Below, in pieces: positions 13,273-62,232 of a stretch of DNA of 64,000 nucleotides. Under the pieces are notes generated by a model. That model was not told where the DNA came from and made no database searches. It saw only the letters and a list, made by a program, of their open reading frames with translations. The stretch is from Deltaproteobacteria bacterium (GTDB taxonomy: Bacteria; Desulfobacterota; Desulfobacteria; Desulfobacterales; C00003060), in assembly GCA_019307135.1 (NCBI GenBank), contig JAFDKF010000018.1, positions 11,321 to 75,320 of the forward strand. Direction: 5' to 3'. Positions within the stretch are counted from its first letter, which is position 1. Each line of letters begins with the position of its first letter. A program made the position numbers and the translations under genes.

Positions 13273-13297
13273 ACGGCTCTACCCTGCTTCGCCCATA

Positions 13298-13438
13298 AGA
13301 GATCAGAAGTCAGAAGTCAGAGGTCAGAGGTCAGAGGTCAGAGATCAAAAGCCAGAAGCCAGACCTCCGACCTCTGATCTCTGATCTCTATTTTTTCAAC
13401 TGACCTCTATTCTTTTAACTGAACCCGTGAACGGTTAC
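13298..13438. mobile_element. Family A element, copy A2 (core and right arm only)
   Basis: It contains cagaagt/cagaggt heptad runs, ccagacctccgacctctgatctctg, and the terminus ctgaacccgtgaacggttac. It lies 26 nt upstream of the kinase start at 13272. Confidence 0.7.
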
Positions 13439-19327: not shown

Positions 19328-19332
19328 AGGGT

Positions 19333-19405
19333 ATCCGTTCACGGTTTCTTTTAACCCTGAACCCTGAACCCTGAACCTCTGAACCGTGAACCCATGAACG
19401 GTTAC
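19333..19405. mobile_element. Short family A element, copy A3, inside the ech operon
   Basis: The sequence tccgttcacgg...ccctgaaccctgaaccctgaacctctgaaccgtgaacccatgaacggttac fills almost the whole echB-echC spacer and ends 5 nt before the echC ATG. Confidence 0.7.
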
Positions 19406-21354: not shown

Positions 21355-21702
21355 GTGTTCAAAATGACCCCGAACATAATCAGAAACTTCGTCACCAAAA
21401 GGGCCACGAGGCGCTATCCCCATGAGGTAAGAGCGCCCTTTGAAGGCGCGCGGGGCGAGCTGTATAACGAAATCGAAAAATGCACGTTTTGCAGGATTTG
21501 CGCTGTCAAGTGCCCTTCACAATGCATCACGGTGGACAAAAAGACGGCCACATGGGAATGCAACCCCTTTGCCTGCGTGTATTGCGGCATATGCGTGGAT
21601 GTCTGCCGGGAAAAATGCCTGCACCAGAAATGCCAGTACCGGCCTCCGGTTTGCGAACGGGAGATTATTTTCATGAAGGGCAAGACCAAAAAAACGGGGT
21701 AG
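21355..21702 (+). CDS. echF: Ech hydrogenase 2x[4Fe-4S] ferredoxin subunit (NuoI-like)
   Basis: Cys motifs are CTFCRICAVKCP and CVYCGICVDVC. The track ORF begins at 21310, but a GTG at 21355 or ATG at 21364 after aaggggg is more likely. The stop codon lies inside the first bases of MITE A4. Confidence 0.8.
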   Translation: MFKMTPNIIRNFVTKRATRRYPHEVRAPFEGARGELYNEIEKCTFCRICAVKCPSQCITVDKKTATWECNPFACVYCGICVDVCREKCLHQKCQYRPPVCEREIIFMKGKTKKTG

Positions 21703-21932
21703 GCGTTCACAGGTTCAGAGTTCACCGTTTCAGCCGTCGTAGCCTACGGCTACTTTCAGCCGTCGTAGCTGCGCTACTATGGCGAAGTCGGCATGGCGAA
21801 GTCGGCTCAGGGTTACCTTTCCTTTGTTCGGTCAACCCTGAACCCGTGAACCCTGAACCTCTGAACCCGTGAACCCTGAACCTCTGAACCCTGAACCCTG
21901 AACCTCTGAACCGTGAACCCGTGAACGGTTAC
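21699..21932. mobile_element. Family A MITE, copy A4, with an 8-bp target duplication
   Basis: It is flanked by aaaacggg (21691..21698 and 21933..21940). The arms are gtaggcgttcacaggttcag and ctgaaccgtgaacccgtgaacggttac. The core carries the sub-repeat cagccgtcgtagc...ctatggcgaagtcggc, which is also seen in 23253..23551. Confidence 0.8.
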
Positions 21933-21946: not shown

Positions 21947-22070
21947 CTTTTACAATCTGTAAAGAATACTGACAGACATCTTTGATGGGCCACGGGCAAA
22001 GTTCCGTCCTCTTTTGAATAATATTACCTGTTTTCAACTACTTGTTCCGATTACCGGTCATCATTTGTCT
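21947..22070 (+). promoter_or_regulatory. Upstream activating region, paralogous to 7130..7252
   Basis: It has the same ordered blocks, including the palindrome TTTACAatcTGTAAA at its 5' end. Confidence 0.6.
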
Positions 22071-22085
22071 TGGCACACCCATTGC
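22071..22085 (+). promoter_or_regulatory. Sigma-54 (-24/-12) promoter P2
   Basis: cTTGGCACacccaTTGCTc matches the consensus with exact GG-N10-GC spacing, ~37 nt upstream of GTG 22122. Confidence 0.85.
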
Positions 22086-25860: not shown

Positions 25861-26031
25861 GGTAGCCGTTCACGGGTTCAGGGTTCAGAGGTTCAGGGTT
25901 CAGTTAAAAGAATAGAGGTCAGAGATCAAAGGTCGGAGGTCTGGCTTCTGATTTCTGACTTCTGATCTCTGACTTCTGATCTCTGACTTCTGAACGGTGA
26001 ACTCTGAACCTGTGAACGCTTACGCTAAAGG
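25861..26031. mobile_element. Family A MITE, copy A6, with a 10-bp target duplication
   Basis: It is flanked by gtagaaaaat (25851..25860 and 26032..26041). The arms are ggtagccgttcacgggttcagggttcag and ctgaacctgtgaacgcttac. Confidence 0.75.
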
Positions 26032-26593: not shown

Positions 26594-26780
26594 CCACCTG
26601 TGCGGTTAGCATTCACCGTGTTTTGTCAATGAGTTGATGGTTATGAGGGAGACGTCGTAGGGGCGGCTTTACGCCGCCCGCCAAATCAATTCGGGCGAGG
26701 TAAACTCGCCCCTACGGGAAGCCGCCGATCAGAATTAGATCATTCGGAAGGGCTCAAGAATCACCCTAACCGCACAGGTC
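26594..26780. mobile_element. Family B MITE, copy B2, with a perfect 9-bp target duplication
   Basis: The termini are ccacctgtgcggttag and ctaaccgcacaggtc, flanked by gaacttttt on both sides (26585..26593 and 26781..26789). Confidence 0.85.
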
Positions 26781-28460: not shown

Positions 28461-28546
28461 CGTCAAGGCCCTTTCCGGCAAAGGGTGACGCGGGAGTTGA
28501 CAAAAAGGAATCCTAAAGATATAAGTCCAATTTTCAAAGAGTTATA

Positions 28547-30743: not shown

Positions 30744-32189
30744 ATGAAACCATTAAAGGTTGTGATTATTGATGATGAAGAGGCGCACTTTCGGCTCATG
30801 AAACGGGCCATTAGTAAGGAATTCCCGCTTGCCTCGGTCGATTACTTTGAGGATGCCAAGTCCTGCCTTGAAAGGCTCCATGAGATTAGCCCGGATGTCA
30901 TCATCCTCGATTACCTCATGCCCGTCATGAACGGTATCGAGTTTTTAGCAGCTTTAAAGCGAGAGGGCAGCGATATTATCCCGGTCATCATGATCACCGG
31001 CCAGGGGGATGAGAGTATTGCTGTCCAGGCCATGAAACTGGGGGCCTGGGATTATTTGGTGAAGTCTCCGAATTTCTTTGACCTGCTTCCCAGTATCATT
31101 GAGAAGGTGGTTCGCGAACGGAAACTTAAGGAGACACTGCGCGAATCTGAAGAAAGATACAGAGCCTCATTTGACAATTCTGTAGATGCAATAAACATTT
31201 TCTCTGAAGATAGAAGATTTTTAGATGTGAACAAAAAGCTGATTCAATTCAGCGGGTACTCGAAAGAAGAGATTCTCTCTATGAAGCTGGAAGATCTATA
31301 CCCAGAAAGTGTCAAACCCGCGACAAAAGAAAGAATCCAGAAGATGTTACAAGGAGAAGAAGTCTCTGTCTTTGAAACCTACCTTCTTACAAAAAAACAA
31401 GAGAAGATACCTGTTGAGGTAGGCGTTACTGCATTAAAAGACTGCTACGGCCAAAAAATTGTCTTTCAAGGCAACATAAGAGACATCACCGAACGGAAGC
31501 GGGCTCAAGAGCATGTTCATACTCTTTCCCAACAACTAATGAAGGCACAAGAAAACGAGCGGCAAAGGCTTTCTCGTGACCTGCACGACCTGGTGGGGCA
31601 AGACCTTTCCGCCTTAAAAATCGGCCTTGACACCCTTTTTGATGATCAAGCGGAAGTCCCTCCTGGCAAGAGGCAAAGGGTAGCCGAACTCTCCAAAACG
31701 GTTCAGGGAACTATAATATCTGTCAGGGATCTGGCCTATGGCTTACGTCCCACCAGCCTGGATCAGTTCGGGTTTGCCAAGACTATCCTCCGGTATTGCG
31801 AAGAGTTCTCTGCCAGGACAGGAGTCAAGGTTGACTTCTTTGCCGCAGGTCTGGACGATCTAAAATTCGATTCTGATACTGAGATTACCCTGTACCGCCT
31901 GATTCAAGAAGGGTTCAACAACGTTAAGAAACATGCTGACGCCACCGAAGTGACCATCCGGTTGGTCGCCTCTTTCCCTGACATTATTCTTCGCATCGAA
32001 GACAATGGCAAAGGTTTTGACATTCAGAATCGGCTGGTTTCAGCAGTCGATGAAAAACGTATGGGACTTCGGAGCATGGAAGAAAGGGTGGCGCTGCTTG
32101 GCGGAAAAATGAGTATCGAATCCCGCGTCATGCAGGGCACAAAAATTCTTATAGAGATCCCTATCAAGGGCAAAAAGAGTGGCCAATAA
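30744..32189 (+). CDS. Hybrid sensor kinase (REC + PAS + HisKA_3 + HATPase_c, NarX/DegS-type)
   Basis: Track ORF of 481 aa with REC (VVIIDDEE, IILDYLMPVMNG), the HisKA_3 box ERQRLSRDLHDLVGQ, and NNVKKHA...DNGKGF. Confidence 0.85.
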   Translation: MKPLKVVIIDDEEAHFRLMKRAISKEFPLASVDYFEDAKSCLERLHEISPDVIILDYLMPVMNGIEFLAALKREGSDIIPVIMITGQGDESIAVQAMKLGAWDYLVKSPNFFDLLPSIIEKVVRERKLKETLRESEERYRASFDNSVDAINIFSEDRRFLDVNKKLIQFSGYSKEEILSMKLEDLYPESVKPATKERIQKMLQGEEVSVFETYLLTKKQEKIPVEVGVTALKDCYGQKIVFQGNIRDITERKRAQEHVHTLSQQLMKAQENERQRLSRDLHDLVGQDLSALKIGLDTLFDDQAEVPPGKRQRVAELSKTVQGTIISVRDLAYGLRPTSLDQFGFAKTILRYCEEFSARTGVKVDFFAAGLDDLKFDSDTEITLYRLIQEGFNNVKKHADATEVTIRLVASFPDIILRIEDNGKGFDIQNRLVSAVDEKRMGLRSMEERVALLGGKMSIESRVMQGTKILIEIPIKGKKSGQ

Positions 32190-32856
32190 GAAAACCGTTC
32201 TGATTGTTGACGACCATCCCCTTTTCAGGGAGGGTCTCAAGTCCCTTATATCCCGCAACCCAAGGTTCGAGGTGGTTGGGGAAGCCGGAAATGGACGTGA
32301 AGGGCTCCGGATGAGCAAGCGACTCAAGCCGGACCTGGTGGTGATGGACCTATCCCTGCCGGATAAAAGCGGCATTGACGTTACCCGCAACATACGAGGC
32401 CTTTTGCCAGAGACACGTGTCATGATTGTCAGCATGCACTCCAAAATCGATTATATCACCGAGGCATTTCAGGCAGGGGCTACTGGATATGTGGTGAAGG
32501 AATCAGCCACTGACAGACTCGTGCAGGGGCTGGAAGCCGTGTCAAAGGGCGAGTATTTCCTGGACACTTCGCTTTCCCATAAGGTGGTGAACAAGCTCAT
32601 GGAATTCCCTGAAAAGGAGGCAAAGATCACGGATGCAAGATATGAGACCCTGACTTCTCGCGAGCAACAGGTCATGCGTCTGCTGGCCGAAGGGTTTTCC
32701 TCCAAAAAGATCGCTGAAAAGCTTTTCATCAGCCGCAAGACCGTTGAGAACCACCGGGCCAACATTATGAACAAACTTGACCTTCACAGCACCATGGAAC
32801 TGGTTCGATATGCGGTCAGGCTCGGCCTGATCGATGTGGACCTCTGGAAGGGTTAG
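32179..32856 (+). CDS. NarL/FixJ-family response regulator (REC + LuxR-type HTH)
   Basis: Track ORF of 225 aa with a GTG start overlapping the kinase stop. Motifs are VLIVDDHPLFREG and the HTH LTSREQQVMRLLAEGFSSKKIAEKLFISRKTVENHR. Confidence 0.9.
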   Translation: MANKKTVLIVDDHPLFREGLKSLISRNPRFEVVGEAGNGREGLRMSKRLKPDLVVMDLSLPDKSGIDVTRNIRGLLPETRVMIVSMHSKIDYITEAFQAGATGYVVKESATDRLVQGLEAVSKGEYFLDTSLSHKVVNKLMEFPEKEAKITDARYETLTSREQQVMRLLAEGFSSKKIAEKLFISRKTVENHRANIMNKLDLHSTMELVRYAVRLGLIDVDLWKG

Positions 32857-33131
32857 ACCTGCCTACAGAAATCCTCCTCATTGGTTATTTTTCCCACTTT
32901 TCCTTGGGACAAACTCCCACCAACTAGGGGTTTCCCTCATAAAAATGAGCGCCTTCCTCTATGGACAAATCTTATGGAAATACATATACAAATAAGAAAC
33001 TCCTACGGCTGGGATGAAACCAGCATGGGCGAGAACGCGCCATCCAAAGAAAGGCGAGGAGAGTTCGGATTTCCCTGGGGAGCATAGGCAACCAACAACA
33101 TGCAGAAGCATGAAGAGACGGGGGAAAAGAC

Positions 33132-33323
33132 TTGGTTTTAAAAGAGAATTTCTTGGATGTGATAGAGCTGATCAGGAGCATTCAGCGTGCCGAGGGAAAC
33201 CCTGATTGCTTCGGCACAGCACAGGAGTATTGTGACCAGCTTGACTGTGCCTGGCGTGCCTACTGTCTGGAAAACCACAGCATTTCCCGCATGAAGGGGA
33301 ACAAGACTCATGAAGAGGGATAA
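33132..33323 (+). CDS. Cys4 mini-protein of unknown function, copy 1
   Basis: Track ORF of 63 aa with a TTG start 6 nt after ggggga. An in-frame TGA lies 8 codons upstream. It is paralogous to 39401..39619, with the conserved core ELIRSIQRAxGNPxCFGTAQxYCDQxxCAWRxYCLE. Confidence 0.6.
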   Translation: MVLKENFLDVIELIRSIQRAEGNPDCFGTAQEYCDQLDCAWRAYCLENHSISRMKGNKTHEEG

Positions 33324-33361
33324 AGAAGACATATGGCCACAAAATCGAGGTTAAAAACCAA

Positions 33362-33477
33362 GTAACCGTTCACGGGTTCAATGGTTCAGGGTTCAGTTAA
33401 AAGAATAGAGGTCAGAGATCAGAGGTCGGAGGTCTGACTTCTGATCTCTGACTTCTGAACTCTGAACCTGTGAACGC
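33362..33477. mobile_element. Family A MITE, copy A7
   Basis: gtaaccgttcacgggttcaatggttcagggttcag ... tctgaacctgtgaacgc. It occupies the position where the paralogous locus (39620..39866) has unrelated sequence. Confidence 0.75.
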
Positions 33478-33515
33478 CTGCCAGGACCGTTTAAGACTGA
33501 CACAACACGGAGGGC

Positions 33516-33935
33516 ATGATGGCGAAGATTCTGATTGTCGATGACCAGGCGTGCGTTCGGGAACTCCTTTCCGAAGAACTGATCTCTGATGGGTACCGGG
33601 TTGCAACGGCAGGCGATGCCGAATCAATCAGCGGACACATGAGATTTTCAGAACCGGATTTGGTGCTTCTCGACCTTTACCTGGATGGGGCTGAGGGATT
33701 TAGGATTTTGCGTGATATCAAGGGGCAAAATCCCGATCTGCCGGTCATTATCTTTACCGCTTACGACAGCTACTGGGAGGACCCGCGCTTGTCTCAGGCC
33801 GATGGGTACGTGATCAAGAGTATTGATCTTGGTGAACTAAAAGGGAAGATAGCCGATATCCTCAGCCGCAAACCAGCGCCTCAAGAGCTCGAGGTAAAGA
33901 CGCACTTCCCCGAATCTAGTATGGCCTATGGCTAA
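33516..33935 (+). CDS. Stand-alone response-regulator receiver (paralogue of 39867..40292)
   Basis: Track ORF of 139 aa with the motifs ILIVDDQ, VLLDLYLDG and YVIKS. Confidence 0.85.
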   Translation: MMAKILIVDDQACVRELLSEELISDGYRVATAGDAESISGHMRFSEPDLVLLDLYLDGAEGFRILRDIKGQNPDLPVIIFTAYDSYWEDPRLSQADGYVIKSIDLGELKGKIADILSRKPAPQELEVKTHFPESSMAYG

Positions 33936-33997
33936 TGGCCTTGTAATGCACCGTGCCACGGCTGACAGGGTACCGTGCCAATGAAATAGAGGTGTAG

Positions 33998-34444
33998 ATG
34001 AAAAAAAACAAAATACTATTTGTAGATGACGATCCCAAGATCCTGACAGTAATTGCCTCCGTCCTGGAGCATCGGGGCTACCACGTCACCACAGCTTCAG
34101 GCGGTGAGGCCGCCATTGACGCACTGTGTATGAAGGACTTCGATCTGGTAATCACCGACCTGAACATGCCAGAGATAGACGGTATCGCCGTCGTGAAGAA
34201 AGCCAAAGAGCTAAACCGCGATCGTGGCGTCATGATATTGACCGGTAGTCATGACGCGGCTCTGATTACCGAAGCCCTTCGAGTTGGCGCTGATGACTAT
34301 GTGTTGAAGCCGTGCAAGATGACCGAACTCTGGAGGAGGGTAGACAATTGCCTTGAGAGATCGGAAGTTAGACGAAAGGAGGTATCCTCATGGCATCAAA
34401 TTTCAGAATCTCCATTCACCGAAACAGCGACAACCTGGACCTAA
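33998..34444 (+). CDS. Stand-alone response-regulator receiver
   Basis: Track ORF of 148 aa with the motifs ILFVDDD, VITDLNMPEIDG and YVLKPC. Confidence 0.85.
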   Translation: MKKNKILFVDDDPKILTVIASVLEHRGYHVTTASGGEAAIDALCMKDFDLVITDLNMPEIDGIAVVKKAKELNRDRGVMILTGSHDAALITEALRVGADDYVLKPCKMTELWRRVDNCLERSEVRRKEVSSWHQISESPFTETATTWT

Positions 34445-35812: not shown

Positions 35813-35958
35813 CCTAAAGTGATCGGTTCCAGGTTCAGGCCCGCCCTGGCGCGACGTGCTTAAATTAATCTACTAAGCTCATAATCCCGGTCTGGGCCAG
35901 GGTCTGGGCCAGGGGTTCTTCAACCGGGAACCGTGAACGTTGAACCGCTCAACCCAGG
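35813..35958. mobile_element. Family C MITE, copy C2, with a 5-bp target duplication
   Basis: It runs from cctaaagtgatcggttccaggttcagg to gaaccgctcaacccagg and is flanked by tttag (35808..35812 and 35959..35963). Confidence 0.75.
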
Positions 35959-36248: not shown

Positions 36249-36355
36249 TCGGGAAACGTTGAATTGCGTAAGCAACCTGTGCATCCCTCAAGATTTCAGC
36301 CTACCCTAACATGTCAGCAACATCAAACACATCGACATAACCGCGTTCTTGACGA

Positions 36356-36538
36356 TCAGCGTCTCGACCTACGAGACACTTCCTTCTTCAACAGTTTTGA
36401 AGCTTCCTCACCTAGGGCCGCAAAGCGCTCCTCGATGCATTCGGTGATAATCCGCAGCATGGACTTTCCTTCGAGCGCTGAAAGGATTTTCAATTTTGCG
36501 TGGGCCTCATCACTGAGCCTTGCTGTCATCTTTTTCAT
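36356..36538 (-). CDS. Ribbon-helix-helix (CopG/Arc-like) protein, orphan antitoxin-like
   Basis: The ATG at 36538 lies 5 nt after aaggagg. MKKMTARLSDEAHAKLKILSALEGKSM fits the RHH beta-strand plus helix pattern. No adjacent toxin ORF is present. Confidence 0.6.
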   Translation of the reverse strand: MKKMTARLSDEAHAKLKILSALEGKSMLRIITECIEERFAALGEEASKLLKKEVSRRSRR

Positions 36539-36614
36539 ACCATACCCCTCCTTGCCGTAATATCGGCAAGACGGCAAACATCCTTTACAACAAAAATCTA
36601 TTTGGCGTATTTCA

Positions 36615-36792
36615 GTAACTTCTCAATAACTTCGGGCTTAGGGCTCACCCTGCCCTCTCCCCCGTGGGGGAGAGGGTTTAGCCTGCCCTAGTGCGACAGG
36701 CATAAATCAAGCTCTAACCCGTCCAAACCAGGTCTGGGCCAAGGGTGAGGGGGGATCAACAAATACACGGACTTTTTGAGAAGAGAAGTCAC
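36615..36792. mobile_element. Family H MITE, copy H2
   Basis: The termini are gtaacttctcaataacttcggg and cggactttttgagaagagaagtcac. The flanking 8-mers are gtatttca and ctatttca (7 of 8 identical). Confidence 0.7.
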
Positions 36793-37011
36793 CTATTTCA
36801 TGAATTCTTATGTGAATTTATTGCATTTTCGTGTGGCGGGCGGTTCGCTTTGACAGCTTGCCGTCTTTATGATATATGGGCTTAACCTTTACGTATTGTA
36901 AAAAAAAATGACACAGATAGGCGCTCTATCCTTTTCAAAGCCTACCCTTCTATTCACTTAATATCAATTATATGAATAACCTGCTGCAATTTTATCGACA
37001 GCATCGTATCT

Positions 37012-37026
37012 TGGTACACCCTTTGC
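37012..37026 (+). promoter_or_regulatory. Sigma-54 (-24/-12) promoter P4
   Basis: cTTGGTACaccctTTGCCa has GG-N10-GC spacing. MITE C3 begins 10 nt downstream. Confidence 0.65.
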
Positions 37027-37036
37027 CACTTAATTA

Positions 37037-37202
37037 CCTAAAGTGATCGGTTCCAGGTTCAGGGTTCAAGGTTCAGGGTTGACAACCTTTGAACCTATAA
37101 ACTTTGAACGGTGAACTTTCTTTATTGACGCGTCATCCTTTTGTTAACAGCCAGTTAGGGCTCTTCAACCGGGAACCGTGAACGTTGAACCGCTTAACCC
37201 AG
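37037..37202. mobile_element. Family C MITE, copy C3, with a 5-bp target duplication
   Basis: It is flanked by aatta (37032..37036 and 37203..37207), with termini as in C1 and C2. Confidence 0.8.
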
Positions 37203-37332
37203 GAATTAGTAAAGCCCTTTTCGTGGCACCGAGAAACCTTGGACATTTTCAACGACGAATTGTGGTGTTTTTGAAAAACCGTAAGGGCAAAAGTTTCGTA
37301 AAAGTTTCATCAGTCTCTTGTGGACCAATCTT

Positions 37333-38586
37333 ATGAATTTAGCGCTCAAGACCGCTGATACGGCTATACCTTATGATCCGCGCAAAATTTTGATAGTCGA
37401 CGATGAACCTCGCATGTGTGACAGCCTGAAGGCTTTGTTAAGCAGTGAGGGCTATGAAATACACATATATAATAGTGGCAAAGAGGCTATAAAGCACCTA
37501 GAAAAGAATCGTGTCGACTTGGTTCTTCTGGATATAGTTATGCCGGAAATAGATGGGCACCGGGTCATGGATTACATAAATAGTCAGGACACAGAGACCT
37601 TAGTCATTTTCATAACGGGGTACGCTTCCGTAGAATCAGCCATAGAGGCTCTTAGGGGTAGGGCCTACGATTACCTGAAAAAGCCGTTTGAGTATGAGGA
37701 ATTGTTAAAGGCAGTCAAAAATGCTCTTGATGAAAAAGCGTTAAGAAGTGAACGGAAGCGAGTCGAGGAGGCACTTCGCAAAGCTCGGGATGAACTGGAA
37801 CTCAGGGTGAAGGAGGAAACTGCGGAACTGACAAGGACTAATGAACTACTTCACCAGGAGATCATAGGGCGCAAGCGGGCGGGGGATCAGATTCGCAGGC
37901 TGAGCCACGAGCTTTTAGTGGCGCAAGAAAGTGAGCGGCAAAGGATTTCTCGTGAGTTGCACGACGTGTTGGGGCAAGAGCTTTCTGCCTTGAAAATCGG
38001 CCTTGACACCTTTATTGATAATCAAGCGGAAGTGCCTCCTGGCACAAGACAAAGGCTGGCCGAACTTTCCAAAACGGTTCGGGGAACTATAATGTCTGTC
38101 AGAGATCTGGCCTATAACTTACGGCCGCCCAGTCTGGATCAGCTCGGACTTGGTCAGACGATTCTCCAGTGTTGCGAAGAGTTCTCCGCCAAGAGCGAAG
38201 TAAAGGTTGACTTTTTTGCCACCGGCATAGATAAGTCAACACTCGATTTTAATACGAAAATTAACCTGTACCGCCTGATTCAAGAAGGGCTCAACAACGT
38301 TAAGAAACATGCTGACGCCACCGAAGTGACCATCCGGTTGGTCGCCTCTTTTCCTGACATTATTCTTCGCATCGAAGACAATGGCAAAGGTTTTGACATT
38401 CAGAATCGATTGGCCTCAGCACTTGATGAAAAACGTATGGGACTTCGGAGCATGGAAGAAAGGGTGGCGCTGCTTGGCGGAAAAATGAGGATCGAATCCC
38501 GCGCCATGCAGGGCACGAAAATTCTTATAGAGATCCCTATCAAGGACAAAAAGAGCGGCCAAAAAGAAAACCGTTCTGATTGTTGA
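37333..38586 (+). CDS. Hybrid sensor kinase (REC + coiled coil + HisKA_3 + HATPase_c), paralogue of 30744..32189
   Basis: The track ORF begins at 37318 (TTG), but ATG 37333 is more likely. Motifs are ILIVDDEP and [15 protein letters not shown]. The 3' third is nearly identical in DNA to copy 1. The stop is displaced 7 codons because the ancestral TAA is now AAA. Confidence 0.85.
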
Positions 38587-38751
38587 CGGCCATCCCCTTT
38601 TCAGGGAGGGTCTCAAGTCCCTTATATCCCGCAACCCAAGGTTCGAGGTGGTTGGGGAAGCCGGAAGAGGCATTCCAGGCATGGGCTACTGGATATGTGG
38701 TGAAAGAATCAGCCACTGACAGGCTGGTGCAGGCGCTGGAAGCCGTGTCAA
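38555..38751 (+). pseudogene. Remnant of a NarL-family response regulator (paralogue of 32179..32856)
   Basis: The GTG start is changed to GCG. A 170-bp internal deletion (equivalent to 32291..32460) shifts the frame. A second deletion removes everything after the equivalent of ~32546, including the LuxR HTH. Track ORF 38580..38828 is a chimeric reading of this remnant. Confidence 0.8.
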
Positions 38752-38955
38752 TAGAAACCCTTCTTATTGGTTATTTCTGCCACCTGTCCTTAGGACAAAT
38801 TCCCATCTACTGGGGATTTCCCTCATAAAAATGAGTGCCTTCCCCTATGGACAAATCATACAAAAACCGTCATACGATGCAGAAACGCTCCGGAAAATAG
38901 CAAGGGATGAGAAAACGTACAGGCAACCAAAAGCCCATTGCTAGGGAGGAACAAA

Positions 38956-39360
38956 ATGAACAACATCTTAATCGTCGATGACGTAGAGTGCGTTTCTGCT
39001 GTGCTTCAACAAATTTTGTCCCGGTCTGGTTATCATGCCGAGATCGCGGCCGGAGGTCACGAAGGCATCCAAATGTTTGATACTACACCCTTTGATTTAG
39101 TCATAACAGACATCAAGATGCCTGGTATTGACGGGTATGGGGTGGCTCGACACATTCGCAAATCTCACAGATCCTCCACACCAATTATAGGCATTTCGGG
39201 CACGCCATGGCTTTTGGATGGCGATGAATTTGACTGGGTCATACCAAAACCTTTTGGGCTCCAGGCCCTCTTGGACGCTGTGGAAAACCTGATAGGTCAC
39301 ACAGTGACTTCTTGCCAAGATTCCCCCGACAGCGTGAACCAACCTACTCAAAACGTTTAA
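38956..39360 (+). CDS. Stand-alone response-regulator receiver
   Basis: The ATG at 38956 follows gggagga. Motifs are ILIVDDV, VITDIKMPGIDG and IPKPF. Confidence 0.85.
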   Translation: MNNILIVDDVECVSAVLQQILSRSGYHAEIAAGGHEGIQMFDTTPFDLVITDIKMPGIDGYGVARHIRKSHRSSTPIIGISGTPWLLDGDEFDWVIPKPFGLQALLDAVENLIGHTVTSCQDSPDSVNQPTQNV

Positions 39361-39400
39361 GAGGCTTCGGACTTGCCTCTGAGAAATAGGGGACAAAAAC

Positions 39401-39619
39401 ATGTCAAAGCCTCAACAGGCGACAAAATCGTTGGATTTCAAAAATAGTTTTTTGGATATGACAGAGCTGATCAGAAGCATACAGCGTGCTGATGGAAACC
39501 CTGCTTGCTTCGGCACAGCACAGGGGTATTGTGACCAGGTCAATTGCGCCTGGCGCCGCTACTGCCTCGAAAAGCCACAGCAGTTTCTGAACGGGGGCAA
39601 GACTCATGAAGATGAATAG
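39401..39619 (+). CDS. Cys4 mini-protein of unknown function, copy 2
   Basis: Track ORF of 72 aa with the same C-x7-C-x4-C-x5-C core and the same ggggaCAAAAAC-start context as copy 1. Confidence 0.6.
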   Translation: MSKPQQATKSLDFKNSFLDMTELIRSIQRADGNPACFGTAQGYCDQVNCAWRRYCLEKPQQFLNGGKTHEDE

Positions 39620-39687
39620 AGAGGAAGTTAGCCGCACCGCAATTGCAATATTGCAATGGTGGAATGATGGGTTGAAAGGAGGAAGCC

Positions 39688-39861
39688 TTGGAGAAAATAG
39701 TGATTGTAACCAGCCAACCAAAGCCTGATTATGGTTTACTTGAATTAGTCAGTACAGCGTTCCCTGACTGCGAGATCCAAATTGTTTTCAGGGGGATTGA
39801 AACCTTTGAGCAGTTTCAGGCCAACTGCTTTTCAGGACCGTTTACGACTGACACAACATAG
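39688..39861 (+). CDS. Possible 57-aa ORF (below the track threshold)
   Basis: A TTG start lies 6 nt after aaaggagg, and the frame is open to TAG 39859..39861 (LEKIVIVTSQPKPDYGLLELV...). Only its last ~30 nt are retained at the paralogous locus. Confidence 0.25.
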   Translation: MEKIVIVTSQPKPDYGLLELVSTAFPDCEIQIVFRGIETFEQFQANCFSGPFTTDTT

Positions 39862-39866
39862 GGGGC

Positions 39867-40292
39867 ATGATGACCAAGATTCTGATTGTCGATGACCAGC
39901 CGTGCGTTCGGGAACTCCTTTCCGAAGAACTGATCTCTGAGGGGTACCAGGTTGCAATGGCAGGCGATGTCGAATCAGTCAGGGGACATTTGAGATTTTC
40001 AAAACCGGATTTGGTGCTTCTCGACCCGTACCTGGATGGGGCTGAGGGATTTGGGGTGTTGCGTGATATCAAGGGGCAAAACCCTAATCTGCCTGTTATT
40101 ATCTTTACCGCCTACGATAGCTATGTAGATGACCCGCGGCTATCTCAGACCGATGGCTACGTGATCAAAAGTATTGTCCTTGATGAATTAAAAGGAAAGA
40201 TAGCCGATGTCCTCAGGCGGAAACCGTCGCTTCAAGAGGAGGTCGACTCGAAGATACATTTCCCCCAATTTAGCGCGGCGCATGGATTTTGA
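39867..40292 (+). CDS. Stand-alone response-regulator receiver (paralogue of 33516..33935)
   Basis: Track ORF of 141 aa, colinear with 33516..33935. Confidence 0.85.
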   Translation: MMTKILIVDDQPCVRELLSEELISEGYQVAMAGDVESVRGHLRFSKPDLVLLDPYLDGAEGFGVLRDIKGQNPNLPVIIFTAYDSYVDDPRLSQTDGYVIKSIVLDELKGKIADVLRRKPSLQEEVDSKIHFPQFSAAHGF

Positions 40293-40360
40293 TGAGATCT
40301 GGAGCAATTGAGGAAGGGGTATAGGTTTTAAGAAAATCTTTTTGGGGATACAGACTTACA

Positions 40361-41883: not shown

Positions 41884-42362
41884 CTATTATCCCCACTTTG
41901 GGGGAGAGTAATTTTTCCTTTTGTCTGCTGTGTTCGTTGTAAGGCTGTACCTGACAGCAAGTTTCTTCACTCAAAAGGCCCCTTGAGAAACTGCCTTCAG
42001 CCCTGGCGGCACAAGCGGATAGTGTAAGCCCCCTGCATGTAAGGGGGCTTACACATATCAGGAGTAGAACTCATAAAATCGCTGGGCGATTTTATGACTC
42101 AAAGTAAGGAAGAAGTTGCCATACCCACATCTCCCCTCCCCTGGCGGCCTACGCCTCGTAGAGCCTACTCCGCTACCTTTGCCCGATACTCATTATGGTC
42201 AAAATTAGAATTGCTGTGTCTGATTTTTCTTGGAATCGGAGCCCTTTGACTACAAGCTCAAAACCCTGTATTGTTGTTATACGACTCTGCGAGACGGACA
42301 CAAATCACGGGGTTGCGAAACTAGCAGAGTTCAAATGAACTTAGTTCGCTTCGCTCACAATT

Positions 42363-42443
42363 GGTCGAGTAGTTGAGTAGTTAAGTGGTTGAGTGGTCCA
42401 ACGACCTCACAACTTAACCACTCGACCACTCGACCACTCAACT
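42363..42443. repeat. Hairpin repeat, family I
   Basis: ggtcgagtagttgagtagttaagtggttgagtgg pairs with ccactcgaccactcgaccactcaac. Confidence 0.6.
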
Positions 42444-42465
42444 AAAGTCGCAGGAATTTCAATAG

Positions 42466-42490
42466 GTTGTAGAAATTCCGAGACGTTGAG
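42466..42490 (+). promoter_or_regulatory. Conserved 25-nt leader motif GTTGTAGAAAYTCCGAGASGTYKAR (copy 1 of 3)
   Basis: gttgtagaaattccgagacgttgag ends 10 nt before ATG 42501. Confidence 0.45.
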
Positions 42491-42500: not shown

Positions 42501-43340
42501 ATGAAAAACCCGATAGCTCAAGGATTCTCACCAGAGAGGTGCGTCGCCATATGCATTTTGTTCGTCGGAGCCCTCGCCGGAGCGGTCATCTATTTCGACG
42601 CGCAATCCCACCTGTTGAGGTTCTTTGATTGGCTTGAGGAGATTGGCGCATGGGCTCCACTTCTGTTCATTCTTATCGACATGTTAGTCGTGGTCTTTGT
42701 CTTGCCAGGGGTCATGCTGACGCTTGGCGCCGGATTTATGTTCGGTGTTCTAAAAGGCTCCTTGTACGTTGTCATCGGCACAACTCTTGGGGCGACGATC
42801 GCATTCATGATCGCGCGCCATTTTTTCGGCGAAAAGACCTCAAGATTCGTCCTGGCCCACTCAAAGTTGAAGCTGGTTAATGACGAGTTTACACGCAAGG
42901 GTTGGAAGATCGTTCTGCTAACGCGCCTTGTGCCGTTCTTTCCCTTCAAGCTCTCCAATTACTTTTTCGGGCTCATGCAAATCTCTCTGCGGCATTTCAT
43001 CTTAGGAGTTTTCTTCGGAATCTGGCCAATCACGATCAACAACGTTTATATCGGTTCTCTTGCTGCTGACCTCGCAACGCTTGGCTCGCGCAGCTCTTCA
43101 AGATCGCAGGCGGAATGGGCCATGTATGGCATCGGCCTTATCATAACAATCGCAGCGGTTGTTTACATCACTCGCCTGGCCCGCAGAGCGCTGGATGACT
43201 ATGGTCTGGAGGCGTTGACAGGTTCAGAGTTCACCGTTCAGAAATCAGAGATCAGAAATCAGAAGTCAGAGATCAGAAATCAGAAGTCAGAGATCAGAAA
43301 TCAGAAATCAGAAGCCAGACCTCCGACCTCTGATCTCTGA
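42501..43340 (+). CDS. TVP38/TMEM64 (DedA-related) family membrane protein
   Basis: The characteristic block is FVLPGVMLTLGAGFMFG. I prefer ATG 42501, because the track start at 42393 reads through a hairpin repeat. The last ~44 codons are encoded by MITE A9. Confidence 0.75.
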   Translation: MKNPIAQGFSPERCVAICILFVGALAGAVIYFDAQSHLLRFFDWLEEIGAWAPLLFILIDMLVVVFVLPGVMLTLGAGFMFGVLKGSLYVVIGTTLGATIAFMIARHFFGEKTSRFVLAHSKLKLVNDEFTRKGWKIVLLTRLVPFFPFKLSNYFFGLMQISLRHFILGVFFGIWPITINNVYIGSLAADLATLGSRSSSRSQAEWAMYGIGLIITIAAVVYITRLARRALDDYGLEALTGSEFTVQKSEIRNQKSEIRNQKSEIRNQKSEARPPTSDL

Positions 43341-43388
43341 CCTCTATTCTTTTAACCGACCCCTGAACCTGGAACCGATCACTTTAGA
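43208..43388. mobile_element. Hybrid family A/C MITE, copy A9
   Basis: The left end is A-type (ggaggcgttgacaggttcagagttcaccgttcag). The core is made of cagaaat/cagaagt/cagagat heptads. The right end is C-type (ctgaacctggaaccgatcactttag). Confidence 0.7.
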
Positions 43389-49333: not shown

Positions 49334-49366
49334 TATTTACATTTCCAAACAGTGTGTGATAAATTT

Positions 49367-49543
49367 GTAACATGGGTTCAGGGTTCACCGTTCAGAAGTC
49401 AGAGATCAGAAGTCAGAGATCAGAAGTCAGAGTCAGAGATCAGAAGTCAGAAGTCAGAAGTCAGAAGTCAGACCTCCGACCTCTGATCTCTGACCTCTAT
49501 TCTTTTAACTGAACCCATGAACGGTGAACCCGTGAACGGTTAC
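49367..49543. mobile_element. Family A MITE, copy A10, ending 10 nt before atpD
   Basis: It runs from gtaacatgggttcagggttcaccgttcag through cagaagtcagagat and cagaagt runs to ctgaacccatgaacggtgaacccgtgaacggttac. Confidence 0.75.
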
Positions 49544-56946: not shown

Positions 56947-58017
56947 ATGATGGTTACTTTATACATTACCTCCATTGAGAGGTACACCGGCAAGGATTTA
57001 ATTACCATTGGGTTAATGGACCGGCTGAGACGAGATGGCTTTGAAGTCGGCTATTTCAAGCCTATGGGGCATTTTCCCGTAAAGGTGGAAAACATTGTCA
57101 CCGATAAAGACGCTTGGCTCATTCACAGGCTCTTTGAGATGAAGGATGCCATTGAACTCATATGCCCTGTCATCATCACCCAGGACCTGATCATGCAAAA
57201 CTATGAGAAAGATATCACAGGGTTAGGGAAAAAAATAGAAGGGGCCTTTAAGAAAATATCGGAGCAAAAGGATATTGTGGTAGTAAGCTGTGACACCAAT
57301 CTCAGCGATGGGAGCTGCCTGGGGCTGTCAGGCTCACAACTCATCAAACTATTGAACGCCTATACCCTGTTCGTGGAGCGGTATGAAACTCATTCTTCTA
57401 TCGACTTTGTCTTGGAAATCAAGAAGGTCCTGGGCGAGCCTATGATAGGCGTCGTATTCAATAAGATTGAAGCCGTGGATCTGGAGGAGCTCAAGGAATT
57501 TGTTACACCTTTCCTGCATCGGAGGGATGTGGAGGTATTCGGCTGCTTGCCCAGGGATACGTTGGTAGGGTCTATTGAGGTAAGGGAACTTGTGGACCAT
57601 CTGGGTGCTGATGTGGTGTGTGGCAAGGATAGGCTCGATCCCTTGGTGGAAAACTTCCTGGTGGGTGCCATGCAGGTAGACAAGTTCATAACGTACTTGC
57701 TGAAGAGCCCTTCCTCGGCGGTTATTGTGGGTGGTGATCGCACAGAGATCCAGCTTGTTGCCATAGAAAATGAAGTGAGATGCCTTATCCTATCCGGAAA
57801 CCTCTACCCCAATGAAATCATCATGGCAAGGGCTGAGGCAAAGGGTGTGCCTATTCTGGTAGTCAGAAATGATACCTACACAATAGCAAAAAATGTGGAG
57901 GCCATGGTTGGAAAGTTTAGCCTGGGGAAAAGAGAAAAGATAGCCCACGGGATCAAGCTGGTAGATGAGACCTTCGATTTTAGGAAGCTTTACAAGCGCC
58001 TCAACCTTGAGCCCTAA
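56947..58017 (+). CDS. Phosphotransacetylase-N-terminal-like protein (BioD/CobQ-like P-loop-fold domain plus DRTGG domain)
   Basis: Track ORF of 356 aa. The N-terminus is LYITSIERYTGKDLITIGL...GYFKPMG. A DRTGG-like block (VIVGGDRTEIQLVA) is present. Confidence 0.6.
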   Translation: MMVTLYITSIERYTGKDLITIGLMDRLRRDGFEVGYFKPMGHFPVKVENIVTDKDAWLIHRLFEMKDAIELICPVIITQDLIMQNYEKDITGLGKKIEGAFKKISEQKDIVVVSCDTNLSDGSCLGLSGSQLIKLLNAYTLFVERYETHSSIDFVLEIKKVLGEPMIGVVFNKIEAVDLEELKEFVTPFLHRRDVEVFGCLPRDTLVGSIEVRELVDHLGADVVCGKDRLDPLVENFLVGAMQVDKFITYLLKSPSSAVIVGGDRTEIQLVAIENEVRCLILSGNLYPNEIIMARAEAKGVPILVVRNDTYTIAKNVEAMVGKFSLGKREKIAHGIKLVDETFDFRKLYKRLNLEP

Positions 58018-58025
58018 GTTTAGCT

Positions 58026-58181
58026 GTAAGCGTTCAGAGGTTTAGAGTTCACCGTTCAGGGTTACCTTTCTTTCGTTGACCTTGCTCGTAGGCTAGCAAA
58101 TACTTGATGAAACCTCGAATCAACGGTTTAGATTTTTGGTAAACCCTGAACCCTTGAACCTCTGAACCCGTGAACGGTTAC
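58026..58181. mobile_element. Family A MITE, copy A11, with a perfect 8-bp target duplication
   Basis: It is flanked by gtttagct (58018..58025 and 58182..58189). The arms are gtaagcgttcagaggtttagagttcaccgttcagg and cctgaacccttgaacctctgaacccgtgaacggttac. Confidence 0.85.
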
Positions 58182-58206
58182 GTTTAGCTTTTGCCCAAGG
58201 GGTGGA

Positions 58207-58231
58207 GTTGTAGAAATTCCGAGACGTCTAG
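58207..58231 (+). promoter_or_regulatory. Conserved 25-nt leader motif (copy 2 of 3)
   Basis: gttgtagaaattccgagacgtctag ends 16 nt before ATG 58248. Confidence 0.45.
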
Positions 58232-58247
58232 TTAAGGGAGGGCATCC

Positions 58248-58946
58248 ATGTTAGTAAAAGGCTGGATGACTGATGATGTCATAACTGCGGGTGAAGACAC
58301 CACCATGATGAAGGCTTTTATCATCATGAAGGAGAAAAAGATCCGCTCCTTGCCAGTTGTGAACAAAAAGGGTAGACTGTTAGGGATCGTTACCGACAGG
58401 GACTTGAGAGACGCTTCACCATCCAAGGCAACGACCCTGGACGTGTATGAACTGAATTACCTGATCTCTACCATTAAGATCAAGGATCTTATGACCAAAA
58501 ATCTGGTGTTTGTCAGGCCCGATGAGACAGTGGAATTCGCTGCAATCTTGATGCTCGAAAACAAGATCTCATCACTTCCTGTCATCAATGACAAGGATTC
58601 CTTGATCGGCATTATCACGCAAACCGACATTTTCAAGGTGCTGATCAATATTACAGGGGTTTACACCGGGGGCATTCAGTTTGCGTTCAGTCTGGAGGAT
58701 CGCCCGGGTTCGATCAGAGAAGTAACCGATGTGATCCGGTCCTATGGTGGGCGAGTGGCGAGCCTCTTATCTACACGCGAAACCGCTGAAGAGGGTTGCC
58801 ATAATGTTTACATACGCACCAGCCCCTTGCCAGAAGACAAGCTGAGAGGTTTGGTCAAAGAACTGGAAGAGAAGTTTGTGGTCCTTTACACGTCCAAGGA
58901 CTTACTCGGCGAGGTTGAGAGTCGTCGCATTCGAATTCCGGGATAG
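58248..58946 (+). CDS. CBS-pair plus ACT domain protein (AcuB-like)
   Basis: Track ORF of 232 aa with two CBS motifs (LLGIVTDRDL and LIGIITQTDIF) and a C-terminal ACT-like region. Confidence 0.75.
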   Translation: MLVKGWMTDDVITAGEDTTMMKAFIIMKEKKIRSLPVVNKKGRLLGIVTDRDLRDASPSKATTLDVYELNYLISTIKIKDLMTKNLVFVRPDETVEFAAILMLENKISSLPVINDKDSLIGIITQTDIFKVLINITGVYTGGIQFAFSLEDRPGSIREVTDVIRSYGGRVASLLSTRETAEEGCHNVYIRTSPLPEDKLRGLVKELEEKFVVLYTSKDLLGEVESRRIRIPG

Positions 58947-58982
58947 CCCATTCGCTCCGCTTCCTTAAAATCCCCCCTTTAA

Positions 58983-59096
58983 CCTAAAGTGATCGGTTCA
59001 AGGTTCAGGGTTCAAGGTTCAAGGTTCAGGGTTCAGGGTTCAGGGTTCAGGGTTCAAGGTTCAAAGGTTCAAAGGTTATAGTCTACTTTACAAGGG
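58983..59096. mobile_element. Family C element, copy C4 (left part with an expanded GGTTCAG/GGTTCAA heptad run)
   Basis: cctaaagtgatcggttc is followed by about 11 heptads and then aaaggttatagtctac, as in the left part of C1. Confidence 0.65.
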
Positions 59097-59149
59097 GTGT
59101 GAATCACAGCTGTTGGCAATGAGAAAATCCATGTCCGTCTGGAAACGTT

Positions 59150-59208
59150 GTAGGGGCGGCTTTACGCCGCCCACCAAATCGATTCGGGCGGGGTAAACCC
59201 GCCCCTAC
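59150..59208. repeat. GTAGGGGCGG double-hairpin unit (the core of family B elements) without the B termini
   Basis: gtaggggcggctttacgccgcccaccaaatcgattcgggcggggtaaacccgcccctac matches the B1/B2 interior. Confidence 0.65.
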
Positions 59209-59324
59209 GGGAACTGGAATATTGGGTTATTTTTTTCTGCTTCTCACTCCCATTATTCCAATATTCCAACATTCCATTTTCATGCCACAGAAAACTGTTG
59301 CTGAAAGATAAATAATTACAGCGA

Positions 59325-59349
59325 GTTGTAGAAACTCCGAGAGGTTGAA
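59325..59349 (+). promoter_or_regulatory. Conserved 25-nt leader motif (copy 3 of 3)
   Basis: gttgtagaaactccgagaggttgaa ends 17 nt before ATG 59367. Confidence 0.45.
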
Positions 59350-59366
59350 TTAGGGTATGAGTCGTC

Positions 59367-60629
59367 ATGGTAGTCGATAAAAAGTATATATCGACCAAAT
59401 TTAGCCACACCAAGCTTAAAAGGAGGCATAAGGAGCTTGCCGTCCTGTATGACATTAGCAGCGACCTGACGAGCTCTCTTGGCCTTACAGAGGTTTTGGA
59501 TAGAGCGATCCTGAAAGTTCTGGAACACTTTAAGGTAGATACTGTCAGGATTTATTTAATGGATCAAACCGAGCAGTGCCTTGAACTCGTTGCCTATAAA
59601 GGGATTGCAAAGAACCAGGTGAAGGAGTTACGCAAAATCCGTATAAGTGAGGGCTTTTCAGGCAAAGCGGCTCGAACCAAAAGCTTTATCGCTCAGAAGG
59701 TTGCGGACCTGGAAAACAAGGAAAGAGCAGCCCTTCTGCAAAGGAAGGGATTCAAAGTTGTCATATGTGTGCCTCTCATCTTAAGGGACAAAGTGGTAGG
59801 CGTCATGAATCTGGGTTCAAAACGGATGATTTCACTAACTGAAGCAAAGATTGATCTGTTAGTCGCCATAGGAAGCCAGATCGCCATTGCAATCAACGTA
59901 GCCAGACTTTATGAGGATATCCGGAAAAAAGCAGAAGAGATCAGGAAGACAAAAGAGGAGTTGGAATTGTTTGCCTATACGATCTCACACGATCTCAAGA
60001 ATCCGGCTATCGGCGTCTCGGGGTTTGCCAGATTACTCGCTGAAAAATATGAACATAGCCTGAACGAAAAAGGGAAAAGATACTGCAATCAAATCAGGAA
60101 GGCAGCCGAACAGATCGAGATATTCACTCAAGACATCAATGAGTACATCAAGTCCAGGAGAGTCTCTTTCAACATCAAAAAGACCAATATCAAAAAGATC
60201 ATAGGGCACATCAGGAATGAAGTGTTACATGTTTTGAAGGAGCGGAATATAAAATGGTCGGAACCCGACACCATTCCCCAGGTCATGGCAGACCAGTTGG
60301 CCATAACCCGAGTTTTTAGAAACTTGATCGATAACGCGCTGAAACACGCCGGAGAAAATCTTACCAAGATTGCCATAGGCTATGACGAGGACAAGGACTT
60401 CCATATATTTTCGTTTAGCAATGACGGTGTGGCTATGAAAAAGAAGAATTCCGAGGTGATCTTTCAAATGTTCCAAAAACTTCCAGCATCGGAGCAAACA
60501 GATGGCTCGGGCCTGGGTTTAACCATTGTGAAAGAAATCGTGGAAGCCCACAAGGGCAAAGTCTGGTGTGAATCCGGGCCCAAAAAGGGTACAACCTTTT
60601 ACGTAGCTATTTCAAAGGACCTCGGATAA
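59367..60629 (+). CDS. GAF-domain sensor histidine kinase
   Basis: Track ORF of 420 aa with a GAF-like N-half and the motifs HDLKNPAIGVSGF, LIDNALKHA and GSGLGLT. Confidence 0.85.
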   Translation: MVVDKKYISTKFSHTKLKRRHKELAVLYDISSDLTSSLGLTEVLDRAILKVLEHFKVDTVRIYLMDQTEQCLELVAYKGIAKNQVKELRKIRISEGFSGKAARTKSFIAQKVADLENKERAALLQRKGFKVVICVPLILRDKVVGVMNLGSKRMISLTEAKIDLLVAIGSQIAIAINVARLYEDIRKKAEEIRKTKEELELFAYTISHDLKNPAIGVSGFARLLAEKYEHSLNEKGKRYCNQIRKAAEQIEIFTQDINEYIKSRRVSFNIKKTNIKKIIGHIRNEVLHVLKERNIKWSEPDTIPQVMADQLAITRVFRNLIDNALKHAGENLTKIAIGYDEDKDFHIFSFSNDGVAMKKKNSEVIFQMFQKLPASEQTDGSGLGLTIVKEIVEAHKGKVWCESGPKKGTTFYVAISKDLG

Positions 60630-60650
60630 TCTTCTGGGGGGAAGTTTGGG

Positions 60651-60759
60651 GTAAGTTCTCAAAAAGTTCGGGTAAGACCATTTCTCGTAGGGGCGGGTTT
60701 ATCCCGCCCGTAAGAGCTTTGCGCCGCAATGAACACAGGCGGGATAAACCCGCCCCTAC
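60651..60759. repeat. H-type terminus followed by a GTAGGGGCGGG hairpin unit
   Basis: gtaagttctcaaaaagttcggg is followed by gtaggggcgggtttatcccgccc...ggcgggataaacccgcccctac. Confidence 0.55.
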
Positions 60760-60869
60760 TTTAAGAATATGCGGGTTTGGGCACTGGCATCGCATTGAGA
60801 TCCATAGCGCTTACATTGAAGCCGTCCCGAATCTATTGAGTTACAGTTTGGGCAGATAAGGGACCGATC

Positions 60870-61955: not shown

Positions 61956-62232
61956 TTGAACCTCCTGACGTATCTTCTTCAAATTGCATGTTAGCCCAGA
62001 TAAATGCTCCTTGTTTATGGAATGATGGAGTGACCAGTTACCCATCAAGTGTGAAGAGCCTACCTCCTGACTTTTTTTCGGCGACGCTATAGGCAAAGGC
62101 CCGTGGGTGTCAAGGGGAATTCCATCGAAATTCTTATTGACGTATATGATACTCAGAACCGGATTCATATCTTTTTTCCGTTTCTTGTTATGCTCGGGAC
62201 TATGGAGGTGGGAATATGGCCGGATTAACCAT

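Follow-up and report, generated by a model that had tools for sequence, protein, structure and literature searches.

We analysed a stretch of 64,000 nucleotides from a member of the Desulfobacterales (contig JAFDKF010000018.1), referred to below as the window, and in particular the spacer upstream of a gene for a hybrid response regulator/HisKA_3 histidine kinase. Between a sigma-54 promoter motif and the kinase gene lies C3, a copy of a MITE (miniature inverted-repeat transposable element) family that we refer to as family C, which opens with CCTAAAG, closes with CCCAGG and is followed by the original leader of the gene (Table 1). An earlier note on this DNA had claimed that the transcription start predicted from the motif coincides with the beginning of the element, and we found this to be the case: the core is exact, its GG and GC are canonically spaced, and counting from the -12 C at 37026 places the predicted +1 at ~37038, with C3 running from 37037. 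The same note had read AATTA on both sides of C3, which is correct, and had placed the element at 37037-37202; the start of this interval holds but its end falls one base short.

C3 is an insertion accompanied by a 5-bp target-site duplication, because the orthologous contig L108 (L-numbers denote contigs or loci compared with the window) has the site empty with a single AATTA. The kinase of L108 is 86% identical at the protein level and 90% identical at the nucleotide level, and its empty site, ccacttaattagtaaagcc / gccacttaattagtaaagcc / cttggtacaccctttgccacttaattagtaaagccctttt, is the window sequence minus C3 and one AATTA. When the two alleles are aligned, both flanks of the insertion site are perfectly conserved. 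The ends of C3 form inverted repeats that match at 11 of 17 positions between CCTAAAGTGATCGGTTC and CCTGGGTTAAGCGGTTC, the reverse-complemented right end, and further GGTTCA/TGAACC pairing is found inward of these terminal repeats. No open reading frame (ORF) of ≥40 aa lies within C3. Copies that are 95-97% identical to it were found in three other metagenome-assembled genomes (MAGs; L024, L049 and L060).

Table 1. Coordinates of the kinase locus and of further promoters and repeat elements in the window.
Feature	Position	Strand	Description
Hybrid response regulator/HisKA_3 histidine kinase gene	37333-38586	+	417 aa; Pfam Response_reg, HisKA_3, HATPase_c
C3	37037-37203	+	family C copy, 167 bp; left end CCTAAAGTGATCGGTTC, right end GAACCGCTTAACCCAGG; absent from L108
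Left AATTA	37032-37036	+	promoter positions -6 to -2; single AATTA in empty allele L108
Right AATTA	37204-37208	+	second copy of the target-site duplication
Original leader	37209-37332	+	124 nt, ~95% identical to orthologues
Sigma-54 -24/-12 core TGGTAC-N5-TTGC	37012-37026	+	TGGTACACCCTTTGC; exact match; predicted +1 ~37038
Palindrome TTTACGTATTGTAAA	36888-36902		likely enhancer (activator-binding) site, 124 nt upstream of TGG
Sigma-70-like element	36850-36878	+	TTGACA 36850-55, 17-nt spacer with TG, TATATG 36873-78
Further repeat insertion	36605-36792		~186 bp, absent from L108 (alignment)
Divergent gene	36356-36538	-	60 aa; weak ribbon-helix-helix (ParD/HicB-like) similarity
Enhancer-promoter module	7115-7251	-	palindrome 7237-7251, core 7115-7129; repeat element 7292-7622 upstream
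Enhancer-promoter module	21949-22085	+	family A element 21699-21932 ends 17 nt upstream
P3/A1	10243-10477	-	core, then family A element A1, then CBS gene
C1	28547-28917	+	family C copy, 371 bp, flanks TTATA and TTTTA
C2	35813-35958	+	family C copy, 146 bp, duplication TTTAG
Family A, including	10243-10440, 13285-13438, 25862-26023, 33362-33481, 43208-43388, 49360-49543		
Family E	42337-42487, 58196-58228, 59200-59345; L099 160-375		

The family to which C3 belongs is a real transposable element and an ordinary MITE family, apparently undescribed so far. It is of MITE size, has inverted ends, makes a duplication of fixed length, occurs in many copies and is missing from its site in a relative; the one thing not found, in the loci examined, is a partner insertion sequence (IS). 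The 17-nt left end was found on at least 96 contigs in the species-representative genome collection; it is identical across its carriers, which are almost all Desulfobacterales or Thermodesulfobacteriota MAGs and come from many species. We observed 51 complete copies with both ends, ranging from 70 to 505 bp, whose targets are AT-rich and mostly of the form T-N3-A. Approximately 27 of these copies are flanked by perfect 5-bp direct duplications and ~10 more by duplications matching at 4 of 5 positions. Heptamer arrays and nested repeats make up the interior of the family, in a mosaic that is variable. The window holds four copies, and at one of them (C2) the TAG stop codon of the upstream ORF lies within the TTTAG duplication. 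In the loci examined, no pair of family C ends encloses a transposase, and one long pair (L052) encloses host genes. Additionally, the plasmid collection held nothing relevant to an autonomous partner, and an Rfam scan of the whole window at gathering thresholds matched no family. A complete copy of 204 bp with a perfect TTTTA duplication is present in L029, a contig binned as Gammaproteobacteria; this copy outside the Desulfobacterota could reflect horizontal spread or mis-binning. The 17-mer matches in L013, L031 and L077 look like chance, since no GGTTCA repeats follow them.

The sigma-54 promoter at 37012 is probably genuine. Exact cores of the form TGGYAY-N5-TTGC occur four times in the window, with 0.62 expected and none of 100 shuffles reaching four, and all four are intergenic and face a gene. 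The sequence TGGTACACCCTTTGCC at 37012-37027 is a good match to the consensus TGGCACG-N4-TTGCW with exact GG/GC spacing, and the core is identical in the orthologues L099 and L108. We did not take motif conservation by itself as evidence for a promoter, because the whole spacer is ~97% identical and the 69 of 70 positions shared with L099 are therefore not discriminating. Between the window and L108, coding sequence is 90% identical and the spacer minus insertions ~97% identical, including a perfect stretch of ~130 nt from roughly -115 to +15. Since the spacer is conserved throughout between lineages, a palindrome at a fixed distance from the core is the more useful test, and it is the strongest support for the sigma-54 promoter. 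The palindrome TTTAC-N5-GTAAA occurs three times in the window, with 0.03 expected, each time 122-124 nt upstream of an exact core and nowhere else. Palindrome and core are at 7251 and 7129 (minus strand), at 21949 and 22071, and at 36888 and 37012. The three cores concerned (37012, 7115 and 22071) have TCTTGGYAYACCCWTTGC in common. The same palindrome-core module is present in L108 and also in an unrelated locus (L073, 1246-1383, minus strand), where the spacing is 123 nt. Altogether, the window and the compared loci (~696 kb) contain six TTTAC-N5-GTAAA palindromes, of which five have a sigma-54 core after them at this distance, and a TGACA-like sequence often stands just after the palindrome. 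The promoter at 37012 is thus likely to be functional, its activity being predicted from sequence.

A gene for an NtrC-type sigma-54 activator is present at 10665-12068 (Sigma54_activat domain, E = 2.9e-68), and rpoN is not among the genes of the window. The distribution of the palindrome module suggests that it may mark one regulon, in which the hybrid kinase gene would be joined by a response-regulator gene and two CBS/TauE operons. The probable signature of this sigma-54 regulon can be written as TTTAC-N5-GTAAA, 122-124 nt, then TCTTGGYAYACCCWTTGC.

The orthologous spacer exists in four allele types, which are empty (L108) or carry C3 (the window, L097 and L098), a family E element (L099) or a full IS (L100-L102 and L107). 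In L099 a complete, inverted family E element is flanked by CCACTTAA and TAAAGCCC and interrupts the same 11-bp TTAATTAGTAA that holds the C3 site. The IS is inserted 75 nt before the kinase ATG, and the gene is intact in the L100/L107 lineage; it spans 258-1795 of L107 and 1-54 of L100, encodes a 458-aa DUF772/DDE_Tnp_1 transposase and has three TTGAGTTACT repeats at its end. In total, counting the ~186-bp repeat of the window that L108 lacks, five independent insertions have occurred across lineages in the ancestral 436-nt spacer, and the only two AATTA pentamers in this spacer have both been used as insertion sites. The metagenome contigs L097 and L098 encode an identical kinase protein and differ from the window over 2.1 kb only by deletions at C3: L097 lacks 30 bp corresponding to the inner hairpin (window 37070-37099), and L098 lacks 47 bp (~37183-37229) comprising the right end of C3, the duplication and 25 nt of flank. 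These deletions represent either decay of C3 within the population or assembly artefacts at the repeat. A metagenome scan with a 24-nt pattern for the promoter junction gave no match, and a scan with a leader pattern recovered one contig, L107, which carries the IS allele.

We consider it probable that C3 is an ordinary MITE in a permissive AT-rich gap at a sigma-54 start, that is, a tolerated insertion and not a new mechanism. C3, a non-autonomous copy of a MITE family carried by many Desulfobacterales, has entered the AATTA at the predicted -6 to -2 and duplicated this pentamer. The duplication leaves the presumed contacts of the polymerase and the activator intact, namely the DNA to -2, the -24/-12 core and the palindrome ~124 nt upstream, and the first base of C3 now stands at the predicted -1. 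The front of the transcript would gain 172 nt, extending the leader from ~124 to ~296 nt, and the leader would open with the imperfect hairpin of C3. The match between the start of C3 and +1 would arise from the preference of the family for AT-rich pentamers together with purifying selection, and not from targeting by the family; selection would remove insertions in the module and in the conserved leader, and the junction at +1 would be the permissive gap. Elements are indeed found at the borders of modules: C3 at +1, the L073 element at ~+22, one element 17 nt upstream of the palindrome at 21949 and another 41 nt upstream of that at 7251. Such a distribution would be expected if selection removes insertions that part the enhancer, the core and the conserved leader. 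No element lies inside the four 137-nt enhancer-promoter modules, with the sole exception of the family E copy in L099. A suggestion of the earlier note, that leaders are the safest landing sites, fits these observations, in that elements border intact modules and the flanks of C3 are perfectly conserved relative to L108.

The position of C3 could instead be caused by active targeting, in which transposases prefer the DNA just past sigma-54 promoters, for example because the closed complex distorts the region from -12 to +1. We consider this unlikely. Family C itself has no promoter preference: of 152 family C ends (101 copies), only one, at C3, has a sigma-54 motif that lies within 80 nt and points into the element, with 1.0 expected. 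The gene contexts of 32 fully flanked copies, based on crude ORF calls, are tandem in 19 cases, convergent in 7 and divergent in 6, so the convergent 3′/3′ spacers, which lack promoters, are as well represented as any. Tandem copies show no orientation bias (12 and 7 in the two orientations). For family C, these counts do not bear out the alternative proposal of the earlier note, that the elements target or exploit promoter-proximal DNA.

Several observations nevertheless weigh against a purely tolerated insertion. Among intergenic sigma-54 motifs in 694 kb, a repeat lies ≤45 nt downstream of 8 of 37 strong motifs but only 3 of 71 weak ones (one-sided Fisher p = 0.007), whereas there is no difference on the upstream side (4 of 37 strong and 7 of 71 weak). 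For exact intergenic cores the downstream count is 5 of 9, or as few as 3 depending on the coverage threshold, compared with 9% of random intergenic positions. Besides C3, the persuasive cases are A1 in the window and the family A element of L073. Insertions on the downstream side lie ~8-40 nt past the motif, bunched within its first ~40 nt, at the near end of leaders that can reach ~120 nt, which leaves some room for a real promoter-proximal preference beyond selection. Additionally, the family E element of L099 entered within ~7 bp of C3 at the same promoter, and a second family E end of L099 falls within the module, ~70 nt upstream of the start, so that the module is not absolutely protected. 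The activity of the promoter and its start site at ~37038 are themselves predictions.

The excess of repeats downstream of strong sigma-54 motifs is suggestive, but it comes from a small sample, in loci picked because they carry family C, and it varies with the repeat-annotation threshold. Repeats were annotated for this comparison from an all-against-all BLAST coverage map, which replaced a detector based on motif density that proved far too strict. Targeting also has to contend with a distance from the -12 that varies from ~8 to ~40 nt in no fixed register, and with the requirement that at least three unrelated element types share the preference (one with a 5-bp duplication, one with an 8-bp duplication and one with asymmetric ends). 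The 11-bp site is not a significant insertion hot spot: given five insertions in 436 nt, the estimated probability of a second one in the 11-bp site is P ~0.1, and that of any two of the five falling within 7 bp is P ~0.28, neither of which is significant. The site shared by C3 and the family E element is explained by target sequence, since family E ends elsewhere commonly abut AATTA-like sequence and family C duplicates AT-rich pentamers.

A wider version of this idea is that the first tens of nucleotides past sigma-54 promoters in MITE-rich Desulfobacterales form a zone of preferred integration or retention for several unrelated families, beyond neutral tolerance. This seems improbable to us as well. 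A zone of this kind could be caused by a long-lived sigma-54 closed complex that marks or distorts the DNA, or could result if 5′ hairpins were favoured as stabilisers of tightly switched sigma-54 transcripts. If the zone were real, the series of empty, C3, family E and IS alleles would record repeated rewiring of sigma-54 leaders.

C3 might also have been co-opted as a leader RNA module, acting as a stabilising 5′ stem-loop or as a site of RNase III/E processing or attenuation. The termini of the C3 RNA pair in the predicted fold (-51.5 kcal/mol, z = -2.3), so that the 5′ end of a transcript beginning at 37038 would be base-paired. A paired 5′ end can stabilise mRNA in other systems. Hairpin-forming repeats stand in several sigma-54 leaders of related genomes, and Correia elements are reported to bind RNase III and to affect how neighbouring genes are expressed (PMC2649163). 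When the remaining leader is included, however, the fold is no better than that of shuffled sequences (z = -0.4). A scan of C3 found no terminator-like tail and no outward promoter; near the right end TTGAAC is followed at a 17-nt spacing by AGTAAA, which matches the -10 consensus at 3 of 6 positions. The window-wide Rfam scan was equally negative, near-identical strains carry deletions in C3, and the orthologous site is empty or holds an unrelated element. C3 is unlikely to be an essential regulatory module, because it appears to be decaying within the population and is absent or replaced in orthologues, and we regard exaptation as doubtful. Taken jointly, a true preference for promoter-proximal DNA and the co-option of a leader hairpin have in our judgement only a slim chance of being correct, and a tolerated insertion remains the explanation that we prefer.

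That the sigma-54 motif is no working promoter, and that the kinase gene is transcribed from the sigma-70-like element at 36850-36878 with C3 amid a long 5′ untranslated region, is hard to credit: the TTGACA-N17(TG)-TATATG block is kept in L103 and L105, both without the sigma-54 motif, and the kinase gene of the L100/L107 lineage is intact despite the IS upstream, but the palindrome spacing shared with two other window cores and one in L073, the TCTTGGYAYACCCWTTGC shared with those promoters and the perfect ~130 nt around the motif relative to L108 all argue for a sigma-54 promoter, and sigma-70 and sigma-54 promoters can stand in tandem without excluding each other.

The sigma-70-like element belongs to a block, CTTGACRGCTTGCCGYCTTYATG, between the kinase gene and the divergent 60-aa gene, which is kept in L108 and in the L103 and L105 homologue loci (67-69%). 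The block is an imperfect palindrome (GACnGC..GCnGTC) overlapping the sigma-70-like -35; it is present in a single copy and is not itself a repeat. A strict sigma-70 scan of 36300-37400 reported nothing, including at 36850-36878, and the element may be a second promoter or an operator. C3 is in the leader whichever role the element has. We also considered the block as a small ORF encoding MNNLLQFYRQHRILVHPLPLN and rejected this, as it has no ribosome-binding site and its C-terminus is different in every allele. The Pfam matches of the divergent 60-aa gene are below curated cut-offs; gene calls place it beside kinase homologues in L097, L103, L105 and L108 too. The paralogous kinase gene at 30744 was rejected as an empty-site control, because it lies within an operon and lacks its own promoter. 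A cluster of response-regulator and kinase genes is present twice in the window, ~6.35 kb apart (31482-34000 and 37858-40300, 79-89% identical).

The arrangement of promoter, element and gene had been noted for three further cases, with mixed results. At P3/A1 it is as described: the core at 10463-10477 (minus strand) is followed by A1 from ~+12 (10243-10440), and the ATG of the CBS gene comes 16 nt after A1. The leader of the paralogous operon, with its promoter at 7115-7129, contains no element. This CBS/TauE/unknown operon is present as a tandem copy (4623-7250 and 7769-10400, 72-88% identical). The candidate sigma-70 promoter upstream of C1 is weak: TTGACA is present at 28497-28502, but the spacer is 17 nt and not 18, TATAAG (28520-28525) lacks the conserved final T, and the sigma-70 scan gave no hit. 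For the element A2, proposed to lie between a promoter and a kinase gene, we found nothing promoter-like between A2 and 13592 on the kinase strand.

Nearly all spacers of the window longer than ~150 nt are filled by repeat elements, ~18 in number and from several families. Family A has ends GTARSCGTTCACRGGTTCAG and 8-bp duplications, for example AAAACGGG (21699-21932) and GTTTAGCT (58026-58181), and its arms are arrays in which heptamers (GGTTCAG, TCAGAAG, TCAGAGA) are repeated in tandem and arranged in inverted order, the length of the array varying by copy. The family A element of L073, which starts ~22 nt after the predicted start, has the 8-bp duplication GATTTCCC. Family E is not a classical inverted-repeat MITE: its ends, GAACTTAGTTCGCTTCGCTCACAATTGG and GGTTGTAGAAATTCCGAGACG, are unlike each other and its core is a variable array of short repeats. 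At three places in the window its right end comes 14-22 nt ahead of a start codon, often beside AATTAG-like sequence. Families other than C also lie within operons. The element at 19331-19405 is inside a hydrogenase operon, 3-5 nt from both flanking genes, and the one at 49360-49543 occupies the gap before a V-type ATPase alpha/beta-family gene. A further element (43208-43388) overlaps the 3′ end of a VTT-domain gene, and there is no room for a promoter at any of these three or at 35813-35958. A GC-rich repeat, GGGTTTACCCCGCCCGAATCGATTTGGTGGGCGGC, is present at 4278-4388, 26597-26705 and 59141-59200; its copies are 93-95% conserved and in places are nested beside other elements. The region 57263-61968 is 97-98.5% identical to MAG CSMAG_1091.

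The heptamer-rich repeats saturate the intergenic DNA of the window, break MAG assemblies and create spurious ORFs. Their known ends allow clean masking, family C as CCTAAAGTGATCGGTTC...CCCAGG with 5 bp and family A as GTARSCGTTCACRGGTTCAG with 8 bp. The natural series of empty, C3, family E and IS alleles could be used to test whether a MITE at +1 alters the output of a sigma-54 promoter. We expect no effect, and if this is so the series would be a clear example of selection shaping the sites at which MITEs survive.

Bacterial MITEs in general resemble C3 in being short and non-coding, with imperfect terminal inverted repeats, a fixed duplication, many copies and mostly intergenic locations; an intergenic location is reported for ~90% of prokaryotic MITEs (PMC11602168). 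Family C differs in its mosaic interior, and the loci examined yielded no autonomous partner that shares its ends. The Correia repeat-enclosed elements of Neisseria, which the earlier note had offered as a parallel, are also hairpin-forming MITEs that often lie between promoter and gene and are co-transcribed, and to this extent the comparison holds. Correia elements duplicate TA, whereas C3 has a 5-bp duplication, no outward promoter was found in it, and its structure is not kept among strains, with the hairpin lost in some. Correia elements are also reported to be able to create promoters at their ends, to bind IHF and to be substrates of RNase III (PMC2649163); in C3 and at its ends the scan found no sigma-70-like site. 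The parallel is thus a loose one, and family C is not a Correia-type element.

The heptamer repeats of Beggiatoaceae and cyanobacteria are similar to families A and C in their tandem heptamers (GGTTCAG, TCAGAAG, some with TAACTGA). In marine Beggiatoaceae, TAACTGA repeats are reported to lie for the most part immediately before start codons (PMC4679880), and families A and C often end 10-50 nt before start codons. Unlike those repeats, the arrays here are inverted and lie within elements with defined ends and duplications, use many different heptamers and imply no regulator. The closest relatives of the promoter itself are those of the glnAp2 type, with which the promoter at 37012 shares the spacing of -24 GG and -12 GC, a palindrome ~110-125 nt from the core and an NtrC-type gene in the window. 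The regulator encoded at 10665-12068 shares the window with the palindrome promoters and is a putative activator for the palindrome. What sets the promoter at 37012 apart from the glnAp2 type is that a mobile element begins at its predicted -1/+1.

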